Origin: an uncultured bacterium
GTDB taxonomy: Bacteria > Babelota > Babeliae > Babelales > Vermiphilaceae
Direction of reading: 5' to 3'
Assembly: GCA_963788045.1 (NCBI GenBank)
Contig: CAWBEW010000002.1
Location: forward strand, 118,596-182,595
DNA: 64,000 bases
The translations under genes were made by a program, and so were the position numbers. A model generated the notes under the pieces. That model did not search any database. It was not told the DNA's origin and worked only from the letters and a program-made list of their open reading frames with translations. Shown in pieces: positions 4,814 through 38,847 of the stretch; the stretch's first letter is position 1, and the number at the start of each line of letters is the position of its first letter.

Positions 4814-4905
4814 AAATCTCTTAATGATTACTATTTTAAAAGACAGAGGAATAATTGTAACTTTAGCAAGTATCTTGCCTATTGGCAAATTCAAAGGATT
4901 GGCAC

Positions 4906-6513
4906 ATGAGATCAAGTCCCTTAGCCCTTATTATTCTGGATGGTTTTGGCTATAGCCCAAATACTCAATACAATGCGATTGCGCACGCAAAAAAACCAAC
5001 CCTGGATGACTTAATGAACCACTATCCACATACTTTTTTGGCAGCATCCGGGGCTGCTGTCGGGCTTCCTGATGGTTACGTTGGCAATTCTGAGGTCGGC
5101 CATGAAACGATGGGAGCTGGAAGGATAATTCCCTCTTCTTTTTTGCGTCTTTATGACGCAATCAAAGATGGCAGTTTTTTAAGCAATCCTACACTCACCG
5201 CTGCCCTTGATGAGCTTGCACAAACAAATCATACGTTACATATTTTAGGAATACTTTCGGATGCCGGGGTTCAATGCCACGAGAAAATCATACAAGCGCT
5301 TATCTATGCAGGCGCTCAACATGCAATCAAAAAGATCGTAATTCATGCTTTTTTAGATGGCCGCGATGTTCCACCCAAAACAGCCGCAACCTATTTACAA
5401 AATCTTGAAGACTATTGCAAGCCGTTTGGCCAGGTGAGCTTAGGATCAATAACGGGCAGATACTATGCCACGGATCGCGATAACCATTGGGAACGTACCC
5501 AAAAAGCGTATGAAAATCTTATTACCAGTACTATTCCACAATTTTCTTCATGGCAGGACGCGCTTTCTTTTTATTATGGCAAAGATATCACTGATGAATA
5601 TATCCCACCAACAACCCTGCAAGCTGATAGCCAAATAAAGCCAAATGATGGAGTTATCTTTGCCAATTTTAGAGAAGATAGAGCGCGGCAATTGGCCGCA
5701 TGTTTTGTTGCACCGCAATTAACTATCTCTCCACTCGGCTCCCATGGAGCCTCTGGATTCGATACGGCTTCACCTACTCACGACAGGTCTTCGACTACTT
5801 TAGCCGACTGTCCTGAGCAAGCCGAAGGCGCGTCGAAGGAGGCGAACGGAGTGAGAGATCCATTCCCCTTACTCTTTTTCATCAGCGCAGTGCGCTATGA
5901 TCCTCGCTTTACTAATCCGGTTTTGCTTGAAAATCCTCCGATCCACAACACACTCAAGGAGCTCTTGAGCGAAGAAGGAAAAACAATATTCTCAATTGCC
6001 GAAACTGAAAAATATGCGCATATCACCTACTTTTTTGGTGGCGGACACGAAAAACCATTTCCGGGCGAAACGCAAATCTTGATCCCTTCTTTACCGGTCA
6101 AAAATTATAAAGATTATCCACAAATGTCTGCTCAAAAAATTACTGATGCAGTAATTACATCACTTCAAGAAAAACCGCGGGATTTCTATCTGATTAACTA
6201 TGCCAATGCAGATATGGTAGGGCACACGGGCGATCTGCATACAACTATCAAAGCCGTTGAGTGTATTGATCATCAGCTTGCACAACTCTATCAACAGATT
6301 GTGGTAAAAATGAATGGCACTCTCATGATTACCGCCGATCATGGAAATGCTGAATTAAAATTCGATGAAAAGACCGGGCAGCCAAACACGGCTCATACCA
6401 CCAATAAAGTCCCCTTTATTTGGGTCAAAAATGAACTAAGAGACAAAAAAATACATATGCCACTCCATGGCCTTGCTGATATTACGCCTTTTATTTTAAG
6501 CCAGAAAATCTAG
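4906..6513 (+). CDS. gpmI: 2,3-bisphosphoglycerate-independent phosphoglycerate mutase with in-frame repeat insertion
   Basis: LALIILDGFGYS, GNSEVGH, HAFLDGRDV and ITADHGNAE motifs. ATG at 4906 lies 9 nt after AAAGGA. About 45 extra residues (SPLGSHGASGFDTASPTHDRSSTTLADCPEQAEGASKEANGVRDP) are encoded by repeat DNA. Confidence 0.9.
   Translation: MRSSPLALIILDGFGYSPNTQYNAIAHAKKPTLDDLMNHYPHTFLAASGAAVGLPDGYVGNSEVGHETMGAGRIIPSSFLRLYDAIKDGSFLSNPTLTAALDELAQTNHTLHILGILSDAGVQCHEKIIQALIYAGAQHAIKKIVIHAFLDGRDVPPKTAATYLQNLEDYCKPFGQVSLGSITGRYYATDRDNHWERTQKAYENLITSTIPQFSSWQDALSFYYGKDITDEYIPPTTLQADSQIKPNDGVIFANFREDRARQLAACFVAPQLTISPLGSHGASGFDTASPTHDRSSTTLADCPEQAEGASKEANGVRDPFPLLFFISAVRYDPRFTNPVLLENPPIHNTLKELLSEEGKTIFSIAETEKYAHITYFFGGGHEKPFPGETQILIPSLPVKNYKDYPQMSAQKITDAVITSLQEKPRDFYLINYANADMVGHTGDLHTTIKAVECIDHQLAQLYQQIVVKMNGTLMITADHGNAELKFDEKTGQPNTAHTTNKVPFIWVKNELRDKKIHMPLHGLADITPFILSQKI
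5727..5865. repeat. composite palindromic repeat inside the gpmI reading frame
   Basis: CTCTCCACTCGGCTCC-loop-GGAGCCTCT matches module F. CCTGAGCAAGCCGAAGGCGCGTCGAAGGAGGCGAACGG matches other intergenic copies. Confidence 0.75.
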
Positions 6514-6635
6514 CGAACGGGTTTGGTATTCTAAGCCCAAAAATCCAGATAATTTTCATCCAACCATTGTTTTTAGATCGGCAAATAAATTATATTTCTA
6601 TTATAATTAATGCATTTAAACTTAGGGGGGACCCA

Positions 6636-8285
6636 ATGGAAATGAAATCATTATTTTCACGTATTTTCTTAGTGGTATGTACCATGTGTGCAGCCACTAT
6701 TTTTATGGGCATGGTCAAAGAAAAATCATTGGCGCAACAATTTCTAGAAATTAGAAATCATTTGCCGGCGCAAGCGGCAGGAAATCCCCAAATCTATAAC
6801 ACACTTAATACCGTCCGCATTGCACTCGAACAATCGCAACCGGATCTTGCACTTGCAAGCAAAATATTGGAAACCATGCAAGGTCCTATTAAATCCATGA
6901 ATTTCGCCACTGATTTTGGTACTTTAAACGGGCAAGAGCTGATAAATGTTTACTTTGGTGATTTCATAAACCAACTCAATAAAAAAAGTGCTCAGCAGCC
7001 TACTGCTCCTTCAATAAAAAAAGAAGCTCCTGTTGAAAAAATTGAAAAGCCAAGCCAATCAGCGCTCGCTCAAGAGTTTGCGCAAATCTTAGAGAATCTC
7101 CCTAAAACTGGTGAAAATATTCCATTACTCAGACAACCATTAATGGCGGTGCAAAATTTACTTTTACAACCAAAACCGAATTTATCTGAAGTATTACAAG
7201 CATTGCAAAAAATAAAGCAAAATAATGCAATAAAAAATGCCAAATTTAATACCCCAATGTTAGCAGATGTGACTGGCGAGCAGCTTTTTTCTATTTACTT
7301 TGATGACTTTATTAAAAAAATCTCATTGCAATTACAAGCAGATCAACCTCGCAAGGCCGGAATACCATTTGGTCTTGTAAACAAAAATCAAACTTGTTTC
7401 ATGAATTCTTCTATTCAAGCGCTCGCGTCTTTAGACAAGGTAACTAATGTATTGCTCAAACATGCGTATGATGATTATTATCTGCCAAACAGTATATCAG
7501 CATTATACATACAACTTCTGAATACCATGCAAACAGAAAAGAAATCAGTTATTAATCCATTGCCGTTCTGCTTGCAGGGTTGGAAATTGTTTCCCGGTCA
7601 AGAAGGCCGCCAACAAGATGCGGCCGAATTTGTAGAACTTTTATTGGGACGGTTAACTGAAAGTAATGATATTAATCCTGCTCGAAGTCCTGCAAAAATT
7701 AATCAAGAACTGCTTTCTTTATTAGAGGTAAAAATTCTTGAACTCACGTATGAAAAAATCGGTGAAAAATATATACGCACCAAAGACAAAGCGTTTAACC
7801 CGCCGCTCATTACCCCAGCTTTAGCGATAAAGCCCGAATATAAATCACTTTTAGATTGCTTAAAAGGGACTTTTAATCCTTCCAATCCAGAAGGAGAAAC
7901 CAAGAATATAATTAGAGCCATAGATGGAACCAGCAATTATTTTATCTGCAGCATCGGCCGATTAGTAATTGACTATGTTACTAAAAAATACATTAAAATA
8001 AATCAACCAATCTCATTTGAACTTGATAATTTTAATATTTCTTCTCTAACCCTAAGACCAAGCAAAGTTCTACCCCTCTATCGCTGTAAAGCATTCATTG
8101 CTCATAGTGGAGCAGAAGTGGGACACTATATTGCCTATATCCGCATGGGCAACAACTGGTATATGTGTGATGACACGAATATAATCCCGGTTTCTACCAG
8201 TGAAGTGAACAAGTTTGCACAAACAGGAATCTTCAAAGCTGTAGTGGATTATACGCCGGTTATGTTCTTCTACGAGCAACAGTAA
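6636..8285 (+). CDS. secreted eukaryote-like ubiquitin-specific protease (USP/UCH, C19-type) with duplicated N-terminal module
   Basis: Start MEMKSLFSRIFLVVCTMCAA after AGGGGG. Cys box GLVNKNQTCFMNSSIQAL (Cys codon 7395-7397), QQDAAEFVELLL, His box GHYIAYIRMGNNWYMCDDTNI (His codon 8124-8126). Confidence 0.8.
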   Translation: MEMKSLFSRIFLVVCTMCAATIFMGMVKEKSLAQQFLEIRNHLPAQAAGNPQIYNTLNTVRIALEQSQPDLALASKILETMQGPIKSMNFATDFGTLNGQELINVYFGDFINQLNKKSAQQPTAPSIKKEAPVEKIEKPSQSALAQEFAQILENLPKTGENIPLLRQPLMAVQNLLLQPKPNLSEVLQALQKIKQNNAIKNAKFNTPMLADVTGEQLFSIYFDDFIKKISLQLQADQPRKAGIPFGLVNKNQTCFMNSSIQALASLDKVTNVLLKHAYDDYYLPNSISALYIQLLNTMQTEKKSVINPLPFCLQGWKLFPGQEGRQQDAAEFVELLLGRLTESNDINPARSPAKINQELLSLLEVKILELTYEKIGEKYIRTKDKAFNPPLITPALAIKPEYKSLLDCLKGTFNPSNPEGETKNIIRAIDGTSNYFICSIGRLVIDYVTKKYIKINQPISFELDNFNISSLTLRPSKVLPLYRCKAFIAHSGAEVGHYIAYIRMGNNWYMCDDTNIIPVSTSEVNKFAQTGIFKAVVDYTPVMFFYEQQ

Positions 8286-14787: not shown

Positions 14788-14842
14788 AAGCCTGCCCGCC
14801 GAAGCTTGCCGAGCCAGAAGGCCCGGATAAGCGTAGGCTGGA
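14788..14842. repeat. module C repeat copy
   Basis: CCTGCCCGCCGAAGCTTGCCGAGCCAGAAGGCCCGGATAAGCGTAGGCTGG. Near-identical internal hairpin at 59195-59241. Confidence 0.75.
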
Positions 14843-16250: not shown

Positions 16251-16350
16251 AACGTTGCTCCTCCTGATATCTTATGTAAATTAGTTAATATATTTGGTTA
16301 ATACTTACTGCGCTTAATTCTAATAGTACACAATTATTAAGACTTGTCAA

Positions 16351-17071
16351 ATGGAAAACATCGCGCTATCAACACCTGGTCAATCTGATAAGGGTCAGAG
16401 AGCGTTTCAATAAGAATTATTTTGAACAGGAAGCCTGGGCAAGCCAATCAGGTTATTTGCGGCCTTGATGAAGTGGGCCGAGGATGCCTTGCCGGCCCTG
16501 TCGTTACCGCTGCCGTTATCTTCCTGCCGACAAAAGCACCCGGCTCTTAAAAGATTCCAAAATTATGACTCCTGAAGAACGGCTTAAAGCCTTTGAATGG
16601 ATCGATAAACATTGCTGGTATAGCATAGGAATAGTCCATCATAGCAATAGTGGATGAGCGCAAAATGTCTGGCATGCCACCCTAATCGCCATGAAAAAAG
16701 CCTTGGTTCATCTGCTTGCTCACCGCCCCAATAAAACCATCAAAAATCATCACCGATGCAATGCCTTTAAACCTGAAAGACACTCATTATAATGATATTC
16801 CGGTCCATTATTTTCCCTTTGGAGAGCGGCGATCAAGCACGATTGCCGCAGCCTCAATTGTTGCCAAGGTAAAACGAGATGCCATGATGCGCGCCTGGAT
16901 GCCCTGTTTCCGGGTTATTTACTGGCCACCCATAAAGGCTATAGCACCCCGCCCCATAAGCGAATTCTTCGAGAAGGAGGAAATCAGCTGATTATTCATA
17001 GAGACAGCTTTCTGGCTCGCCTTGAGACGATTACTGAGAATGATTCAGAGGGGCAAGGAACTATTTTATGA
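16351..17071 (+). pseudogene. rnhB: ribonuclease HII, at least 5 frameshifts
   Basis: [82 protein letters not shown] and IIHRDSF sit in alternating frames. Stop overlaps the next ATG (ATGA at 17068-17071). Confidence 0.7.
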
Positions 17072-23337: not shown

Positions 23338-25287
23338 ATGGCACGCATCAAACAATTATCCCCCCAAGAAGCACAAAAAATCGCCGCAGGCGAAGTCGTC
23401 GAACGCCCGGCAAACGTGGTGAAAGAACTTGTTGAAAATGCTTTGGATGCCGGCGCAACCCAAATCACCATTCATATTCAAGATGCCGGAAAAACATTAA
23501 TCAGAATTGTTGATAATGGATGTGGAATGGGGCAAGAAGATGCGCATCTATGTTTTAAACATCATGCAACCAGCAAAATTACTCGTGTTGACGATCTGCC
23601 AACACTTACCACATTTGGTTTTCGCGGTGAAGCACTTTCGAGTATTGCTGCCGTGAGTAATGTCACCCTCATCACCAAAGAAACTCATACACCGATGGGG
23701 ACCAAGCTGGTACTCCAACAAGGCACCGTTGTTTCTGATGAACAAGCCCCATGTAATAATGGAACTGATATCAGCATTGCTGATCTATTTTTTAATGTCC
23801 CCGCACGCAAAAAATTCTTAAAGACGCATGAAACCGAGTCTCGGCAAATTATGCTTCTGTTTCAAGCATTTTGCTTGGATTATTTGCAGGTTCATTTTAA
23901 ATTATTTTCCCAAGGAAGTTTATTATATAATTGCCCCGCCGTTGCAGACGTTGCACAACGAATTGCGCAACTTTGGGATCATACGGTTGCACAGCAGACA
24001 CTGCCCATCTCCGCTGAAAAAAACGGTACTCGCATTGAAGGCTGCATCTCAAATCATACCTTCTCACGCTATGATCGGTCTGCAATTTTTATTTTTGTTA
24101 ATCAACGATGGGTAAAAAATCATGCACTCAGCAAAGCACTCATCAAAGGATATATGAATGTCTTACAGTCTGATAAATTTCCACTTGCATGCATCTCTAT
24201 AACTATCGATCCGGCATTGGTTGATATTAATATTCATCCTCGAAAAGAAGAAATACAATTTTTAAATCCTCGGATTATTGAGCAATTGCTGCAAACTACG
24301 GTAAAAGAAAATTTAGAAAAACATCTTTCGGCGCAGCTTAATAAGAGGGTTGAGTTTGCAGAACCAAATCCTGGATTTAAAGGATTTGAGAATAAACATG
24401 GTTCGATACGATTGCTTCGCAATCACTCACCACGAACGGACTCCGTAATGCCAGGTTCTTCTGATATAACTCTTGCCCAATCCAAAGAAATTCCATTCCC
24501 ATTCATCCTGCCTGCCCGCCCCTTTGACTATGCTCAGGATAAACTCCACTCGAAGAACGACGGCTGGGAGAAAGCCAAAGGCGCGTCGATGGGGGCGAAC
24601 GGGGAGGATAACCCGTTCGTGCTGAGCCCGTCGAAGCATTCACCAAACGATTCCATTCAAATGCAAAAACCGATCATCGAAGCTCCAACCAAAAATACCC
24701 AACACACCGAATATCAAATAATCGGCCAATTTCATAAAACGTATATTCTCATCGAACAAGAAGAAAGTTTATTTTTAGTTGATCAACACGCAGCGCATGA
24801 AAGAATTTTATACGAACTCTTTTCAACGCGATTTGATGAAGTTGCGACGATCGGTCTTTTATTTCCGCAAATTATTACCCTCAATCCCGATGAAATTCAA
24901 CAGATTGAACCTCATCTGCAAATTTTTACCAGTAATCATATTTCCATTGAAATAATGGGCGCTCACCAACTCATAGTCAACGCAATTCCGGTACATTTAA
25001 AAGAAATAAATATAGAAGAATTAGTACGGCAGACCATCGGATGGATTACTGAATTTCAAAACCTTGAAGCTGATGCCTGGTATAAAAAGGTACATGAAAA
25101 ACTGCATGCGCAGATGGCATGCAAAGCAGCAGTGAAAGCCGGAGATGTTTTAACCATGGTGCAGATGCAGCAATTGTTGCAAGATCTTGAAAAAATAGAA
25201 AACCGCTTCACCTGCCCGCATGGCCGGCCAACCGGATGGGCGCTTCCTTTATATGAGATCGAGAAAAAATTTAAACGGAAATTGTAA
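23338..25287 (+). CDS. mutL: DNA mismatch repair protein MutL with repeat-derived linker insertion
   Basis: N-terminal GHKL ATPase motifs (VVKELVENALDAG, DNGCGM, GFRGEAL). C-terminal QFHKTYIL...DQHAAHERI. The linker contains repeat-derived PFDYAQDKLHSKNDGWEKAKGASMGANGEDNPFVLSPSKHS. Confidence 0.9.
   Translation: MARIKQLSPQEAQKIAAGEVVERPANVVKELVENALDAGATQITIHIQDAGKTLIRIVDNGCGMGQEDAHLCFKHHATSKITRVDDLPTLTTFGFRGEALSSIAAVSNVTLITKETHTPMGTKLVLQQGTVVSDEQAPCNNGTDISIADLFFNVPARKKFLKTHETESRQIMLLFQAFCLDYLQVHFKLFSQGSLLYNCPAVADVAQRIAQLWDHTVAQQTLPISAEKNGTRIEGCISNHTFSRYDRSAIFIFVNQRWVKNHALSKALIKGYMNVLQSDKFPLACISITIDPALVDINIHPRKEEIQFLNPRIIEQLLQTTVKENLEKHLSAQLNKRVEFAEPNPGFKGFENKHGSIRLLRNHSPRTDSVMPGSSDITLAQSKEIPFPFILPARPFDYAQDKLHSKNDGWEKAKGASMGANGEDNPFVLSPSKHSPNDSIQMQKPIIEAPTKNTQHTEYQIIGQFHKTYILIEQEESLFLVDQHAAHERILYELFSTRFDEVATIGLLFPQIITLNPDEIQQIEPHLQIFTSNHISIEIMGAHQLIVNAIPVHLKEINIEELVRQTIGWITEFQNLEADAWYKKVHEKLHAQMACKAAVKAGDVLTMVQMQQLLQDLEKIENRFTCPHGRPTGWALPLYEIEKKFKRKL
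24501..24640. repeat. nested repeat modules C, D and E inside the mutL reading frame
   Basis: CCTGCCCGCC (as at 14791). Module D at 24521-24555 (as at 50668). CGACGGCTGGG (as at 27580). CGTTCGTGCTGAGCCCGTCGAAGCAT at 24614-24639 is the reverse complement of the 59101 copy. Confidence 0.75.
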
Positions 25288-27504: not shown

Positions 27505-27645
27505 CACACATCCTGCCCTTCGACAAGCTCAGGATGAAATCCGCCTTTGAGGCGCGCGCCCGCCATAGCTCGAAGAGCGACGGCTGGGTATCGAAGGATC
27601 GGCCAATGGTTCGATACGATCGCTATCGCGATCACTCACCATGTG
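27505..27645. repeat. composite repeat: short module B + module C + module B/A junction
   Basis: CACACATCCTGCCCTTCGACAAGCTCAGGATGA, CCCGCCATAGCTCGAAGAGCGACGGCTGGG, GTATCGAAGGATCGGCCAATGGTTCGATACGATCGCTATCGCGATCACTCACCATGTG. Confidence 0.8.
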
Positions 27646-31703: not shown

Positions 31704-32798
31704 ATGATAGTTCAAAAAAAATCAAAATACAAGCTAAAAACTCATTTCTTATTTTTTAGTTTTTTATTTGCGTTCGCATCTCTTTGGGGATCGCAAGATC
31801 CCTCAAAACATCAAAAATATGAATCTTTCAAAAAACTTTTGCCGGCGGATGATACAACAATCACCTCAATTGAAGATCTTTGTGCCGGAGTGAACACCGA
31901 TATTTCATTATGTAAAACTTCTAAAATGCACTATCTTTTAAGAAGCCCTAAAGCAAAAAAACGGAGCGATTTTTTCACAAAAATGATGCATGTACACCAG
32001 GTGATTTCTGAGCAAAAAAACAGCCCCAAAGTTTATAACTATGACCATGATTCCCAACAAATTCTTATGGAATATATAGAAAATAAACAACCATGGCCCC
32101 GCTATGAAGAATCGCCTGCGCTCTATCATGAAACGGTAAGAGCCTTAAGGCAATTTCATGAAACTGTCTCTAATCCCAACTGCTTTAGCTGTAATTATCC
32201 TCGTGACTATTGGCCGTTTGGCTGGTTGTCCAAACATCCCTTTAATCAAAATCCCCAGGCATATAAAATCCCCGAACAATTAACACAGGCATATGCAAGA
32301 ATTAAAGTCATCGCAGGGAAATTTGCCCCTGCCCCTTCAAAGCGTCCGAGCGTGTGCCATGGGGATTTTCATCAAGGCAATATACTTCTTGAATCGAATG
32401 GGAATGGAATCCGCCCTAAAATAATTGATTTTGATACCATTGAGTATGGAGATCATTTTTATGACCTGGCACGATTTACCAATGAACTTCATAGCAATCA
32501 ACACCTGGCATTATTAAAAACATATTTAGGTGAACGCGAGCCCACCCAAGACGAAATTGAACATTATTCAGTTATTTATAGTATTCATACTGTTGTAGAT
32601 TCAACAATACGGCTTGAAACTTTAAACAACAAGCAGCAATTGCCCACTCAAACCAATCATAACGCCCAAGCACACGTTGACTTTACCTACGCAGTGAAAC
32701 GCCTTGATCAGTTTTTAAAAAATACACAGCATTATTCGAAGAACGAAACTATACAGGAAAAAAATCAAGCACAAACTCAAATGAAATACACATCCTGA
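31704..32798 (+). CDS. APH/choline-kinase-like phosphotransferase with signal-like N-terminus
   Basis: VCHGDFHQGNILL ... IIDFDTIEYGDHFYDLARF (catalytic loop plus DFD). THFLFFSFLFAFASLWG hydrophobic segment. The stop codon lies inside a repeat. Confidence 0.65.
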   Translation: MIVQKKSKYKLKTHFLFFSFLFAFASLWGSQDPSKHQKYESFKKLLPADDTTITSIEDLCAGVNTDISLCKTSKMHYLLRSPKAKKRSDFFTKMMHVHQVISEQKNSPKVYNYDHDSQQILMEYIENKQPWPRYEESPALYHETVRALRQFHETVSNPNCFSCNYPRDYWPFGWLSKHPFNQNPQAYKIPEQLTQAYARIKVIAGKFAPAPSKRPSVCHGDFHQGNILLESNGNGIRPKIIDFDTIEYGDHFYDLARFTNELHSNQHLALLKTYLGEREPTQDEIEHYSVIYSIHTVVDSTIRLETLNNKQQLPTQTNHNAQAHVDFTYAVKRLDQFLKNTQHYSKNETIQEKNQAQTQMKYTS

Positions 32799-32946
32799 GT
32801 AGCAGCCATTGGCTGCGTATCGAAGGATTGGCAAATAATGCCAAAGTTAAAACTGCGCTATCTATTTTTACAATGCAAAGCATTATTCTTTTTAGAACTG
32901 GCCCATCCTTCGATACGCGATGCACAGCATCTCTACTCAGGATGTG
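32789..32946. repeat. MITE-like unit: two inverted module B copies flanking about 75 nt
   Basis: CACATCCTGAGT-AGCAGCCATTGGCTGC-GTATCGAAGGAT (32789-32830) and ATCCTTCGATAC-GCGATGCACAGCATCTC-TACTCAGGATGTG (32905-32946). Confidence 0.75.
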
Positions 32947-33341: not shown

Positions 33342-33360
33342 ATTTAAGCCGTTCATTTCG

Positions 33361-33490
33361 ATCCTTCGACAAGCTCAGGATGATCGGGGGTTATGCGAGC
33401 GTACCCGCCGAAGCTTTTAGCGTAGGCTGGGTCGAGAAATAAAAACTTCTCGATTCGGCCTTCGGCCTCACTCGAAGCGAACGGTGAGTA
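33361..33490. repeat. composite repeat: short module B + module C + GC hairpin module
   Basis: ATCCTTCGACAAGCTCAGGATGA, CCCGCCGAAGCTTTTAGCGTAGGCTGG, TTCGGCCTTCGGCCTCACTCGAAGCGAACGGTGAG. Confidence 0.75.
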
Positions 33491-34315: not shown

Positions 34316-37043
34316 TTAAAATACCTTATCAGGCAGAATATACGTGCCTTTCTTTTGACCTTCGGCAATCTTAAGATCAGCCAATGCCTGGTCAAAGTTA
34401 GCCTGAGTGATAAGCGTCTGGCGATTTCTCATAGCAAGTTGAGCCGCTTTATCAACCAGATTCTTAATATCGGCTGCGTTGCATCCTTCCATCGCTTTTG
34501 CAAGCACATCAAACGATATCGTGGTATCCACCGGCTTGCCTTTGCAATAGAATGCAAAGAGCGCCATACGTTTTTCATAGTTAGGCAATGCAACTTCAAT
34601 AATGGTGTCGAACCTACCCGCACGCATTAATGCAGGATCCAAGAGTGTTGGGGCATTGGTTGCCGCCATTACTATCACCGATTCGTCTTTATAGAATCCA
34701 TCCATTTGCGTGAGTAATTCGGTGATCGTTTGATTCGTTTCAGAAGTATCAGCGGTAGCACGGGATCCGATCGCATCAATTTCATCGATGAAGATAATCG
34801 TTTTACCAAAACGGTTACCTTCTGCTTTGGTACGCGCATCATTAAAGAGATCTCGCACACGCTGAGCCCCGACACCAACATATTTTTCTATAAATTCAGA
34901 ACCTTTTGCTTGAATAAACTCGCACCCGGTTTCTTCAGCAATTGCACGCGCAAGCGCCGTTTTACCGGTTCCTGGAGGGCCTGCTAATAAGACACCTTTT
35001 GGAAATGGAACTCCAAAAGCCGAATAGTTATATTCTCCCTTGATCATCTTGACCAAGTCTTCAATAGATGGATCAACCCCACCTACCAAACGCTTAAATC
35101 CTTTGACAGCATCTTTGCCGCCAAAGATTACATCAAGCGCATCCAACTGCTGTTGAATATCTTTATCACCTTTGATCATACGTTCTTTAAGAGTCTTTCT
35201 GATCGCTTCCACAAAATGCTTTTGCTTAAGGCTTTTAATACCCTCTTTTAACGCTGCTGCAGATGCCTTTTGAACCAATTCTTTTAAATCAGCCGGACTA
35301 AAATTATTAGCAGCTTCAGCTATTTTTCTCAGGTTAACATCAGGATCAAGCGGAATATTGGCAGTATAAAGCTTTAACACCTGCTCACGTTTATTAAGAT
35401 CAGGCAAGCCAATTTTGATAATCTTGCTGAATCTGCCCGGACGCAATAATGCTGGATCAATATTATTTGGGTGATTTGAAGCAGCCATCACGATGATAGA
35501 ATTATCTTCTTCAAATCCATCCATCTGGGTTAATAATTCAGTAATGGTCGCATCAAGAGAGTTACCTTGGCGCTTACCAATTGAATCAAGCTCATCAATA
35601 AAGATTATCGTTTTCTTTGACTCGCTATTTACTGCTTTTTGGCGTGCTTCTTTAAAAAGATCGCGGACCTTTTGAGCACCCGCGCCCACAAATTGGTCCA
35701 CAAATTCTGCAGCCGAAACTGCCATAAATTCGCAACCGGCCTCTTCTGAAAGCGCTCGCACTAATGAAGTCTTACCCGTTCCTGGAGGGCCAGAGAGCAA
35801 GATCCCTTTTGGCAAATCTAAGCCATACTTTTTATACACTTCATCATTCTTGATCTGTTTTACCAACTCAGTGATCTCATCAGGAACCTCACCAACTAGG
35901 CGCGCAAATCCCTTCTTTTCTTCTTTTTTTTGATTAAGAAGACTCAACATTACTTTTACCCGTACTGATACATCTTTATCAATACGCCCTTTAGCTTGAA
36001 GCACTTTTATGATTGCCTCAATCATATGTTTTTCAGTAATAAATGATGCTTGGTCTCGTTTAGCAAATATATGCGCATAGTTTATTAATTGTTTTAAATC
36101 CGCGGGAGTAAAGTTATAGGTAAATTGCGCAATCCTGCTTACATTCAGACGAGAATCAAAGGGAACGTTGCCCGCTTGATTAAATTTGATAAGCATTGCT
36201 TCCCGTTCTGCCGGGTTAGGCAATTGCATTTCAATTATTTTATCAAAACGGCCAGAACGTAAAAATGATTTTTCAAAATTTTCTGTGCTTGTACTTGCTC
36301 CGATGACAATTACTGAATCATCTTTAGCAAATCCATCCATCTCATTTAACAATGCGATCGCATCATTGGATAGTTTTTGATGTCGCAAAAACATCAAGAT
36401 CATCGAGAAATAAAACGGTTTTGCCATGTCTATTTGATTGAGCCTTCTTTCGTGCCGCTTCAAAAACTTTCTGGATATCTTCAGCGGTGATGCCTGCAGC
36501 ACTTTGATACATAAAGGGGCAGTCTAATTCTTCTGAAAGCGCCTTTGCTACACTCGTTTTACCGCTGCCAGTTTGCCCTATCAAAAAAATGCCGCGCGAT
36601 TGCTTGATAGCATATCGTGTATTTGTGCTGATGTTTGCATCTTTAAAATAACTTGCAAACTCGATAATCTCTTGCGGAACGGATCCTTCCAGAGCCGCAA
36701 AACCCTTGGGTGCCACTGGAACATTTACAACCGGGCTTGGATTTTGATTGTAGGGATTGCCAAATTGGTTATTCCTATTACCGCCTAAATTATTAGGATT
36801 ATAAGAATTATAGGGTTGATTATTATTCTGATACATTCCTGCATGCGCCGGCACTATCGCCATGATACTTGCAAGAAAAATAAACTTACCAAACCGTTCG
36901 GGTCGATGGAAGCCTGCAAGGCTGAATGGAGACCTCTCCACTCGGCTCCTTTCGGAGCCTCTATCGAGGCGAACGGAGGATGGAAAATATAGCTTCGAAG
37001 GGGATTTAAGTAGTGAATAATAATTCATGAGTAAAATCTCCAT
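34316..37043 (-). CDS. three-module classic-clade AAA+ ATPase (Cdc48/FtsH-like), interrupted by one frameshift
   Basis: ORFs 36363-37043 and 34316-36502 overlap by 140 nt. Walker A GQTGSGKT and Walker B LFLDDLD of module 1 are in the first ORF; its continuation SNDAIALLNEMDGF ... RSGRFD is in the second. Modules 2 and 3 are intact (GPPGTGKT, IFIDELD/IFIDEID, RPGRF/RAGRF). ATG abuts the upstream stop (TAAATG). Confidence 0.8.
36894..36976. repeat. module F palindromic element inside the 5' coding region of the AAA+ gene
   Basis: Reverse complement of 2701-2774, with different loop sequences that still self-pair. Translated as SSVRLDRGSERSRVERSPFSLAGFHRPER. Confidence 0.8.
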
Positions 37044-38513: not shown

Positions 38514-38601
38514 GGTTCGATACGATTGCTGAGGCAATCACTCACCATGTGTGTGCTATCTACACATCCTGAGTGCGAGCAAGGCGAGCGTATCGAAGGA
38601 T
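38514..38601. repeat. composite repeat, module A plus module B
   Basis: GGTTCGATACGATTGCTGAGGCAATCACTCACCATGTGTG ... CACATCCTGAGTGCGAGCAAGGCGAGCGTATCGAAGGAT. Confidence 0.8.
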
Positions 38602-38847
38602 TCTCTATACCATGAGAATACCAAATTAATAATTATAATCAAATTTAGTATTTTTATTTTTTATATTAATTTTTAATAGAAAATATTATTCACCTTTATT
38701 TGCCAGATAAAGGGGGAGAAAAGGGCCAAAATACACGAGATTCAGGCGCCTTTATTTATAATATTGCCTATTTGAATATTTTTATAGTAGGCTAACAATT
38801 AAAGAGCATAATGCTCTGGCAATGCCTATAAAAAGAAGGATTTTTAT

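Follow-up and report, generated by a model that had tools for sequence, protein, structure and literature searches.

Can a mobile repeat settle inside the gene of an essential glycolytic enzyme and persist as a segment of the protein? The question is raised by gpmI, which encodes the cofactor-independent phosphoglycerate mutase (iPGM), in a 64,000-nucleotide (nt) stretch of contig CAWBEW010000002.1 (hereafter the window) from an uncultured bacterium of the phylum Dependentiae (GTDB Babelota). An earlier note, made from the letters of the window, had described a palindromic repeat inserted in frame in this gene at 5727-5865. Comparison with orthologues, folding, the reading frame and a second copy on a contig of another genome (L130) bear that description out, and we consider it probable that a non-autonomous, hairpin-forming 123-bp repeat was inserted into gpmI, where it is carried as a tolerated selfish passenger. 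The features of the gene are as follows.

4906-6513, + strand: gpmI coding sequence, cofactor-independent phosphoglycerate mutase (Pfam, PDB alignment, conserved residues)
5716-5726, + strand: native left flank, CAATTAACTAT; orthologues have CAATTAACT (orthologue DNA)
5727-5849, + strand: inserted palindromic element, 123 nt, 41 codons (orthologue comparison, L130 copy)
5737-5751, + strand: small hairpin GGCTCC-CAT-GGAGCC, common to the M1 element described below, at 36944-36959 (sequence match, folding)
5758-5842, + strand: long imperfect hairpin, the body of the element (folding)
5809-5842, + strand: TGAG…TCGAA module, tgtcc TGAG CAA-GCC-GAA-GGC-GCG TCGAA ggagg, with inner mini-hairpin (pattern scan)
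5850-5865, + strand: native right flank, coding for (G)VRDPF; orthologues have V-I-K-D-P-F (orthologue comparison)
Residues 274-314 in P0001 numbering: peptide segment ISPLGSHGASGFDTASPTHDR… of the gpmI insert, encoded by the 123-nt element

The insert in gpmI and its empty-site orthologues

Apart from the insert the enzyme is canonical, as had been proposed. The open reading frame (ORF) spans 4882-6513 on the + strand and is open from a TTG at 4882 (543 residues); the database form of the product (P0001) starts at the ATG at 4906 and comprises 535 residues with the ORF intact. Pfam recovers Metalloenzyme (2.7e-65) and iPGM_N (1.5e-58), and alignment with solved iPGM structures reaches E ~1e-113. 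Catalytic and substrate-binding residues are conserved (D12, S62, R153/D154, R185, R191, R256, R259, K369, D436, H440, D478, H479 and H497, P0001 numbering), among them the nucleophile (Ser62), the ligands of the metals and the arginines that bind substrate. Named homologues of the product carry the labels Candidatus Dependentiae or Babeliales. A separate observation concerns residue 123 (~5272-5274), which is Gln (VQCH) in P0001 versus the substrate-contacting His123 (VHSH) of the B. stearothermophilus iPGM; this Gln is common to the whole clade and independent of the insert.

The segment is missing in the closest syntenic orthologues. The four closest proteins (P0002-P0005, 79-82% identity to P0001) lack the insert, lie in loci with the order rsmE(-), small ORF(-), gpmI(+) and UCH-family gene(+), and read APQLT-SLVIKDPFPLLFF where the window reads APQLT-ISPLGSH…KEANG-VRDPFPLLFF. 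From NFREDRARQL to NPV the window has 258 nt, which exceeds by 117 nt (net, 39 codons) the 141 nt of the segment in three orthologous loci (L001, L002 and L003). Across 120 homologues, the loop between the anchors CF… and …AV has its modal length of 24 residues in 88 and is at least 40 residues long in five, and the alignment with the B. stearothermophilus structure 1EJJ stops at query 276/chain 273 and restarts at query 330/chain 289, with ~38 extra residues between. An extra segment is thus real, as the earlier note held, although its size had been overestimated at about 45 residues: the element accounts for 41 codons and a net gain of 39 residues. A search of species-representative genomes for close relatives returned none, and a 21-mer of the left flank, used to seek near-identical strains among metagenome contigs, gave one unrelated match expected by chance.

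The ends of the element are fixed by alignment with the L130 copy (CTCTC(C/T)ACTCGG … GGAGG(C/T)GA(A/T)CGG, 123 nt). The end at 5865 given previously has to be moved to 5849, the VRDPF residues being native. The insert splits a presumed ATA codon into ATC…GGA, and its deletion in silico leaves CAA TTA ACT ATA GTG AGA GAT (QLTIVRD). The exact left junction is ambiguous by a few nt, as the orthologues have TCTCTC where the element starts CTCTCC. This terminal CTCTCC (5727-5732) pairs with GGAGG (5838-5842), so that any terminal inverted repeats of the unit amount to only 5-6 nt. The element folds into the small hairpin and the long imperfect hairpin, with an RNA minimum free energy of -43.1 kcal/mol (z = -1.8) and, together with its flanks under DNA parameters, -27.4 kcal/mol (z = -2.6); one compensatory pair change in the long hairpin distinguishes the two copies.

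In composition the insert stands apart from its host gene, with a GC content of 0.579 against 0.421 in the remainder of gpmI and 0.385 in the window, and a GC content at third codon positions (GC3) of 0.52 against 0.37 in the remainder. The earlier statement that no stop or frameshift is introduced is accurate: the frame in use is stop-free over 123 nt (41 codons), whereas each of the other five frames contains at least one stop. The same holds for four other gpmI inserts and for an array in mutL (both described below), in which the used frame is again the sole stop-free frame, and this restriction points to continued selection for an open frame. At the composition of the insert a given frame is open with a chance of 0.23; with the added need for a length divisible by three, we estimate that the ORF would survive ~8% of random insertions of a unit like this one, so that an in-frame survivor is expected if insertions are frequent. 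The encoded peptide consists of 83% small or polar residues, with a grand average of hydropathy (GRAVY) of -0.71 and a net charge of -4. No sign of an intein or self-splicing intron was seen in the insert, which lacks junction residues and, at 41 residues, is far under intein size. At the gathering threshold, Rfam annotates two tRNAs in the whole window and nothing else; by E-value, eight loci yielded tRNAs plus sub-threshold matches to generic long-hairpin families.

An AlphaFold2 model of P0001, built with 120 aligned homologues, has a mean predicted local distance difference test score (pLDDT) of 92.2 and a predicted template modelling score (pTM) of 0.91. It superposes on the B. stearothermophilus iPGM (1EJJ/1O98) with a template modelling score (TM-score) of 0.86 when normalised to the query and 0.90 when normalised to the target. 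Values of pLDDT below 50 occur only at residues 279-309, in coil, between a helix at 257-268 and a strand at 324-327. The model predicts that the iPGM fold is intact and that the insert forms a disordered loop at the surface, where the earlier note had expected it. The insertion site, in the transferase domain, follows the helix that carries the substrate-binding R256 and R259 at its start; the loop would point away from the active site, and catalysis would probably be little affected by an insert presumed to be neutral. The insert is most likely transcribed and translated.

A second copy, a repeat family and recurrent sites

The 42-residue insert peptide, compared by HMMER with 1.8 billion representative proteins, gave a single match, a 61-residue 'protein' (P0241) that led to contig L130. 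The PotA protein encoded there is 72-75% identical to proteins named Dependentiae, and L130 is by this measure a contig of a Dependentiae genome. Its intergenic positions 2250-2370 align with 5727-5849 of the window over 123 nt at 84.6% identity (E = 3.7e-33). In two further contigs, L131 and L132, whose PotA is 90-91% identical to that of L130, potA and potB overlap by ATGA, while in L130 they are separated by ~200 nt that include the element; the L130 copy is therefore also a recent insertion. The inserted DNA (2243-2443, versus 4105-4120 in L131 and L132) comprises the 123-nt element and one further module and ends in GAGGA-N11-ATG, which supplies a new ribosome-binding site and start codon for potB, and the former potB start now begins the spurious 61-residue ORF of P0241. 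On sequence comparison, the 123-nt unit is thus found at two unrelated sites, each empty in close relatives. No copy was found in viral contigs. A target-site preference for TTAAC/CAATTA, present near the left junction of both filled sites, was considered and is not claimed: TTAAC is native in gpmI but lies within inserted DNA in L130 potA/potB and in the spacer of the TsaD-like and ankyrin (Ank) genes of the window.

Parts of the element recur within the window, in the features listed here.

36893-36983, + strand: full M1 element with terminal inverted repeats CCGTTCG…CGAACGG (7 nt); the first 33 nt of the insert derive from its 3' half
2692-2775, - strand: second M1 copy, in the spacer of the convergent TsaD/Ank genes; site empty in L002 and L003
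24396-24650, + strand: in-frame repeat-module array in the mutL linker; holds the best in-window match (24568-24602) to the 3' part of the insert
1950-2000, + strand: intergenic relative of the 3' module, TCCAGAG…GTCGAAGGA…CAAACGG; a looser relative
38565-38602, + strand: intergenic TGAG…TCGAA hairpin with inner hairpin; a looser relative

The first 16 nt of the insert (5727-5742) are identical to 36934-36949 (16/16, E = 0.002 within the window), in agreement with the match reported earlier at 36940, and this similarity extends over 36934-36962 (29 nt at 90%). The last 35 nt (5815-5849) match 24568-24602 at 89% (E = 1.5e-6). Two other matches reported previously, at 1955 and 38570, are real and have the same TGAG…TCGAA hairpin architecture, but they are looser relatives only. 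The description of the repeats as intergenic does not extend to the best in-window match, which lies inside mutL and had not been listed. In the spacer of the TsaD-like and ankyrin genes (2672-2786), M1 is accompanied by AT-rich tails; the two stop codons of L002 and L003 are separated by 1 nt, and L001 and L006 carry other modules there.

The TGAG…TCGAA architecture joins most of these modules. We scanned for the pattern 5'-C(A/G)Tss TGAG (optional hypervariable inner hairpin) TCGAA ssAT-3' and found 38 instances in 190.7 kb (the window and seven related loci) versus 0-4 in 20 block shuffles; among the 38, about seven represent one conserved coding segment and one overlaps a tRNA. The window holds ~14 of these hairpins, three of them within coding sequence and the others, for example, just after or on stop codons (12443, 32791) or between convergent genes (2692-2775), and modules are often nested inside one another's loops. 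Some inner hairpins begin with TGAGTAGC… (GTAG) or end with …GCGTCTCGAA (CGTC), and many stems are CGTCC; other inner hairpins, including that of the gpmI copy, have neither of these two strings, which tag the two superfamilies of REP elements. By these sequence features, the gpmI element is a member of a GC-rich mosaic family built around the TGAG…TCGAA hairpin. Hammerhead or other ribozyme identity of this motif was considered and rejected, since the core nucleotides misfit and Rfam has no match. At 32791-32829, the TGA stop (32796-32798) of the ORF 31704-32798 is the TGA of the repeat's own TGAG, so the repeat either adjoins the end of that gene or defines it. Literature searches with the encoded peptide words and DNA loop strings returned nothing relevant, and no report of such elements in Dependentiae was found.

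The loop of iPGM has received such DNA more than once. At this position, four other homologues (P0006, P0007, P0010 and P0015) have inserts that are unrelated in sequence and composed of members of this repeat family, and all five gpmI inserts hold a TGAG…TCGAA-type hairpin. In L005 a TGAG…TCGAG hairpin accompanies a complete M1 element; the insert of L006 combines a hairpin with a module 36/36 identical to 14806-14841 of the window, and those of L007 and L008 have their hairpins on the opposite strand. In a neighbour-joining tree with the loop masked, P0001 falls inside a clade with 25-residue loops, P0010 and P0015 each lie beside a protein with a 24-residue loop, and P0006, P0007 and P0008 form one clade; these separate positions of the long-loop proteins imply at least four gains. 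No such inserts were found at other internal positions of these iPGM proteins.

A comparable situation is found in mutL (23338-25287), which contains a 255-nt in-frame array in its interdomain linker, encoding the peptides HGSIRLLRNHSPRTD … FDYAQDKLHSKNDGWEKAKGASMGANGEDNPFVLSPSKHS. Orthologues of mutL have other repeat-derived peptides in the linker, one of which matches the L006 gpmI insert in 24 of 27 residues (ARRPSRCTFGAPQDDRKDAFTPELAEG vs ARRPSRRTFGAPQDDRKDAFTPEFAEG). Taken with the iPGM loop, the pattern reads as frequent insertion, with selection sparing the copies at permissive sites, and target preference may be an alternative source of the recurrent sites.

Origin of the insert and related systems

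Under the reading that we favour, the repeat would have entered gpmI after the split from the closest sampled relatives. The copy would have survived because its length is a multiple of three, it is open in the frame in which it landed and the site is a permissive surface loop, and it would now be translated as a loop of ~41 residues, acidic and disordered, in which Ser, Ala and Gly are abundant. It would be a selfish passenger tolerated by selection rather than an adaptive module, and the repeated colonisation of the iPGM loop and the mutL linker is likely due to the small number of sites where an insertion is non-lethal.

Other histories could leave the same gene. A long loop could be ancestral and precisely lost in the close relatives, its likeness to the repeats being secondary; long loops do occur at this site in several lineages of the clade, and precise excision is known for some hairpin transposons. 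Yet the long loops differ completely in sequence between lineages and are scattered on the tree among proteins with loops of 24-25 residues, the insert shares 85% identity with an intergenic element of another genome, and neither its GC nor its GC3 has moved toward that of the host gene, all of which make an ancestral loop very improbable. Mis-splicing of the repeat into gpmI during metagenome assembly is scarcely credible either: the source is a metagenome-type contig and is represented in no public sequencing run, but both flanks continue gpmI in one frame, the insert length is exactly 3n, and analogous inserts occupy the orthologous loop in independent assemblies from other projects. An intact ORF over 535 codons, conserved metal, nucleophile and arginine residues, an intact predicted fold, a used frame that alone is open and four other lineages that keep intact genes with inserts speak against a young pseudogene, in which the insertion inactivated gpmI in a reduced, host-dependent genome. 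This outcome is improbable, even though rnhB in the same window looks fragmented and Dependentiae are described in PMC4776705 as host-dependent with reduced metabolism.

The insert might also have been co-opted, with the loop or the mRNA hairpin serving in regulation, protein contact, interdomain translational pausing or mRNA stability. Repeated colonisation of one loop, structure-preserving covariation in the hairpin family and the new Shine-Dalgarno sequence and ATG that inserted DNA gives to potB in L130 would suit a function, which we nevertheless regard as unlikely: no sequence relationship links the inserts of different lineages, the model predicts disorder for the insert, and tolerance fits better than function where insertions also accumulate in the mutL linker and in intergenic spacers. 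A different matter is how the element arrived. No transposase would be required if the copy arose by recombination, by gene conversion or by a template switch between hairpins at microhomology, and the nesting of modules in each other's loops, the TCTCTC microhomology at the left junction, the lack of a target-site duplication and the failure to find a transposase in 195 kb lend such an origin some probability, though it is not the one we expect. Two unrelated loci show cleanly filled and empty sites with the same element boundaries, which fits a discrete mobile unit better, and the microhomology extends over only 5-6 nt.

The preferred reading, insertion of a mobile repeat that selection tolerates, also has several observations weighing against it. 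A target-site duplication is absent, with a direct repeat at neither filled site (gpmI, L130 potA/potB); full 123-nt copies number two, with none in the other 190 kb of Dependentiae loci; and the folding energy is only modestly better than that of shuffles (z = -1.8 to -2.6). Public sequencing runs gave a word share of only 0.04, none of them containing this sequence. Neutrality is an assumption, and a -43 kcal/mol hairpin in the coding region could affect translation. Finally, no transposase was found when the window and the Dependentiae loci (195 kb) were searched by tblastn with seven RAYT/TIRYT sequences from PMC3733652, nothing scoring below E = 0.4.

Several known repeat systems resemble the element in part. 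The BIMEs of E. coli are extragenic mosaics of palindromic units with variable linkers, in which the same intergenic sites are differently occupied between strains; the Dependentiae family is of different sequence and is likened to them on general grounds. In-frame palindromic insertions are established for the Rickettsia palindromic elements (RPE-1 to RPE-10; Ogata et al., see PMC10969869 and PMC3733652), and the parallel drawn with them in the earlier note holds as a statement of how the element works. RPEs are palindromes of ~100-150 bp of an obligate intracellular bacterium that lie in frame in unrelated housekeeping genes at fold-compatible sites, a description that the gpmI insert shares with its 123 nt, long hairpin and 41 stop-free codons. 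The host phylum, however, is Dependentiae and not Rickettsiales, the element is GC-rich in an AT-rich genome, and no fixed reading frame is seen, the modules lying in varied frames and orientations between genes. The sequence family is also distinct, as had been stated: the peptides of R. conorii CGTC-1 and CGTC-4 (RPE-6 and RPE-4; SFLRKQES…, LDSRFRGND, WIPWSNHGMT) are unrelated to ISPLGSHGASGFDT….

The GTAG/CGTC REPs (Di Nocera et al. 2013, PMC3733652) are likewise short GC-rich stem-loops, often paired or clustered, located mostly after stop codons or between convergent genes, with an intragenic minority, notably in DNA repair genes; different REPs occupy the same recB site in two Xanthomonas species. 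In-frame REP and RPE insertions are documented, many in repair genes (PMC3733652; PMC10969869). The Dependentiae family agrees with REPs in its many short GC-rich imperfect palindromes (38 hairpins; covariation 0.504 vs 0.224, detailed below) and in its mostly extragenic mosaic clusters near 3' ends and convergent genes. It differs in that the conserved part is the loop and frame TGAG…TCGAA and not a terminal tag; moreover, the peptide signatures PELVEG, LSLSK and FDKLR are not among the intragenic REPs listed in PMC3733652, and the phyla covered by that survey do not include Dependentiae. Small non-autonomous repeats such as QMITE1/2 of Coxiella burnetii and the enterobacterial RU/ERIC overlap genes, extend or truncate ORFs and are sometimes in frame (PMC5896051; PMC2759123). 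They bear direct repeats as well as long terminal inverted repeats, and it is mostly the ends of genes or hypothetical ORFs that they affect, whereas the gpmI insert sits mid-gene in a conserved glycolytic enzyme. With miniature inverted-repeat transposable elements it shares filled and empty sites (gpmI versus L001-L003; potA/potB of L130 versus L131 and L132) and a unit without a transposase ORF, but not a target-site duplication. By analogy, the mechanism resembles that of RPEs and intragenic REPs; the phylum is new for such elements, and the sequence family is another one.

On this comparison, protein-coding palindromes extend from Rickettsia and a few proteobacteria to Dependentiae, another obligate intracellular lineage. 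The locus offers an unusually clean natural experiment, in which one loop of an essential enzyme was colonised at least four times by one repeat family and empty-site orthologues are at hand, making it testable how selfish DNA gives rise to new disordered segments, which sites of a compact enzyme are tolerant and whether co-option follows later. It also carries a warning for annotation, as length variants of iPGM and MutL and many small 'hypothetical proteins' in these genomes (e.g. P0241) are repeat products.

Simple hairpins in other phyla and neighbouring loci

A simple hairpin of the form C(A/G)Tss-TGAGCYTGTCGAA-ssAT, with the 13-nt loop TGAGCYTGTCGAA, has a much wider distribution. Among the matches listed, the 21-mer CCTTCGACAAGCTCAGGATGA (loop plus stem) occurs at more than 120 loci of species-representative genomes (L009-L128), spanning more than 10 phyla; the taxa include Alpha- and Betaproteobacteria, Bacteroidota, Verrucomicrobiota, Acidobacteriota, Chloroflexota, Nitrospirota, Patescibacteria, Eremiobacterota, Elusimicrobiota and Dependentiae. 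It is also present in 40 viral contigs (L135-L174). Copies often form inverted pairs 50-100 nt apart, and window sites lie at 33360-33382 and 27510-27545. Among 85 distinct copies that lack the search seed, the four inner positions of the stem are paired in 86-93%, many changes having occurred on both sides, the covariation score is 0.504 versus 0.224 for shuffles (0/500 as high) and at most 0.144 for slid controls, and G·U pairs occur on one strand only. No Rfam family matches this hairpin.

Tentatively, the TGAG…TCGAA core of Dependentiae may belong to an uncatalogued pan-bacterial repeat superfamily, members of which may time and again be turned into coding sequence in permissive loops and linkers of essential proteins. 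Such captures would be those in iPGM and MutL here, and possibly one in FtsK in another phylum. The deep conservation of the hairpin could reflect one shared trans-acting partner or horizontal spread. At ~3108 of L118, from another phylum, the simple hairpin lies in frame (VLRQAQDD) in a long ORF resembling an FtsK linker (…LPDLSMFD…), a case that hints at in-frame capture of the family outside Dependentiae.

Further features surround gpmI in the window. The string AGCGAACGG at 6512-6520 overlaps the final two bases of the gpmI stop codon (6511-6513) and extends just beyond. Syntenic orthologues of the gene 3' of gpmI (6567-8285) match PF00443 (UCH, ubiquitin C-terminal hydrolase), and tandem repeats at 50.8-51.4 kb, in the region 50-57 kb, have a period of ~100 nt, a length compatible with ankyrin repeats, which they may encode; a UCH-family gene and putative ankyrin repeats would be eukaryote-like features typical of intracellular symbionts. 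At ~16300-17000, an RNase HII-like coding sequence (DSKIMTPEER, SSTIAAASIVAKVKRD, HKGYSTPP) is spread over several frames at an unusually high GC of ~0.6, and may be a pseudogene or contain frameshifts that are sequencing errors.

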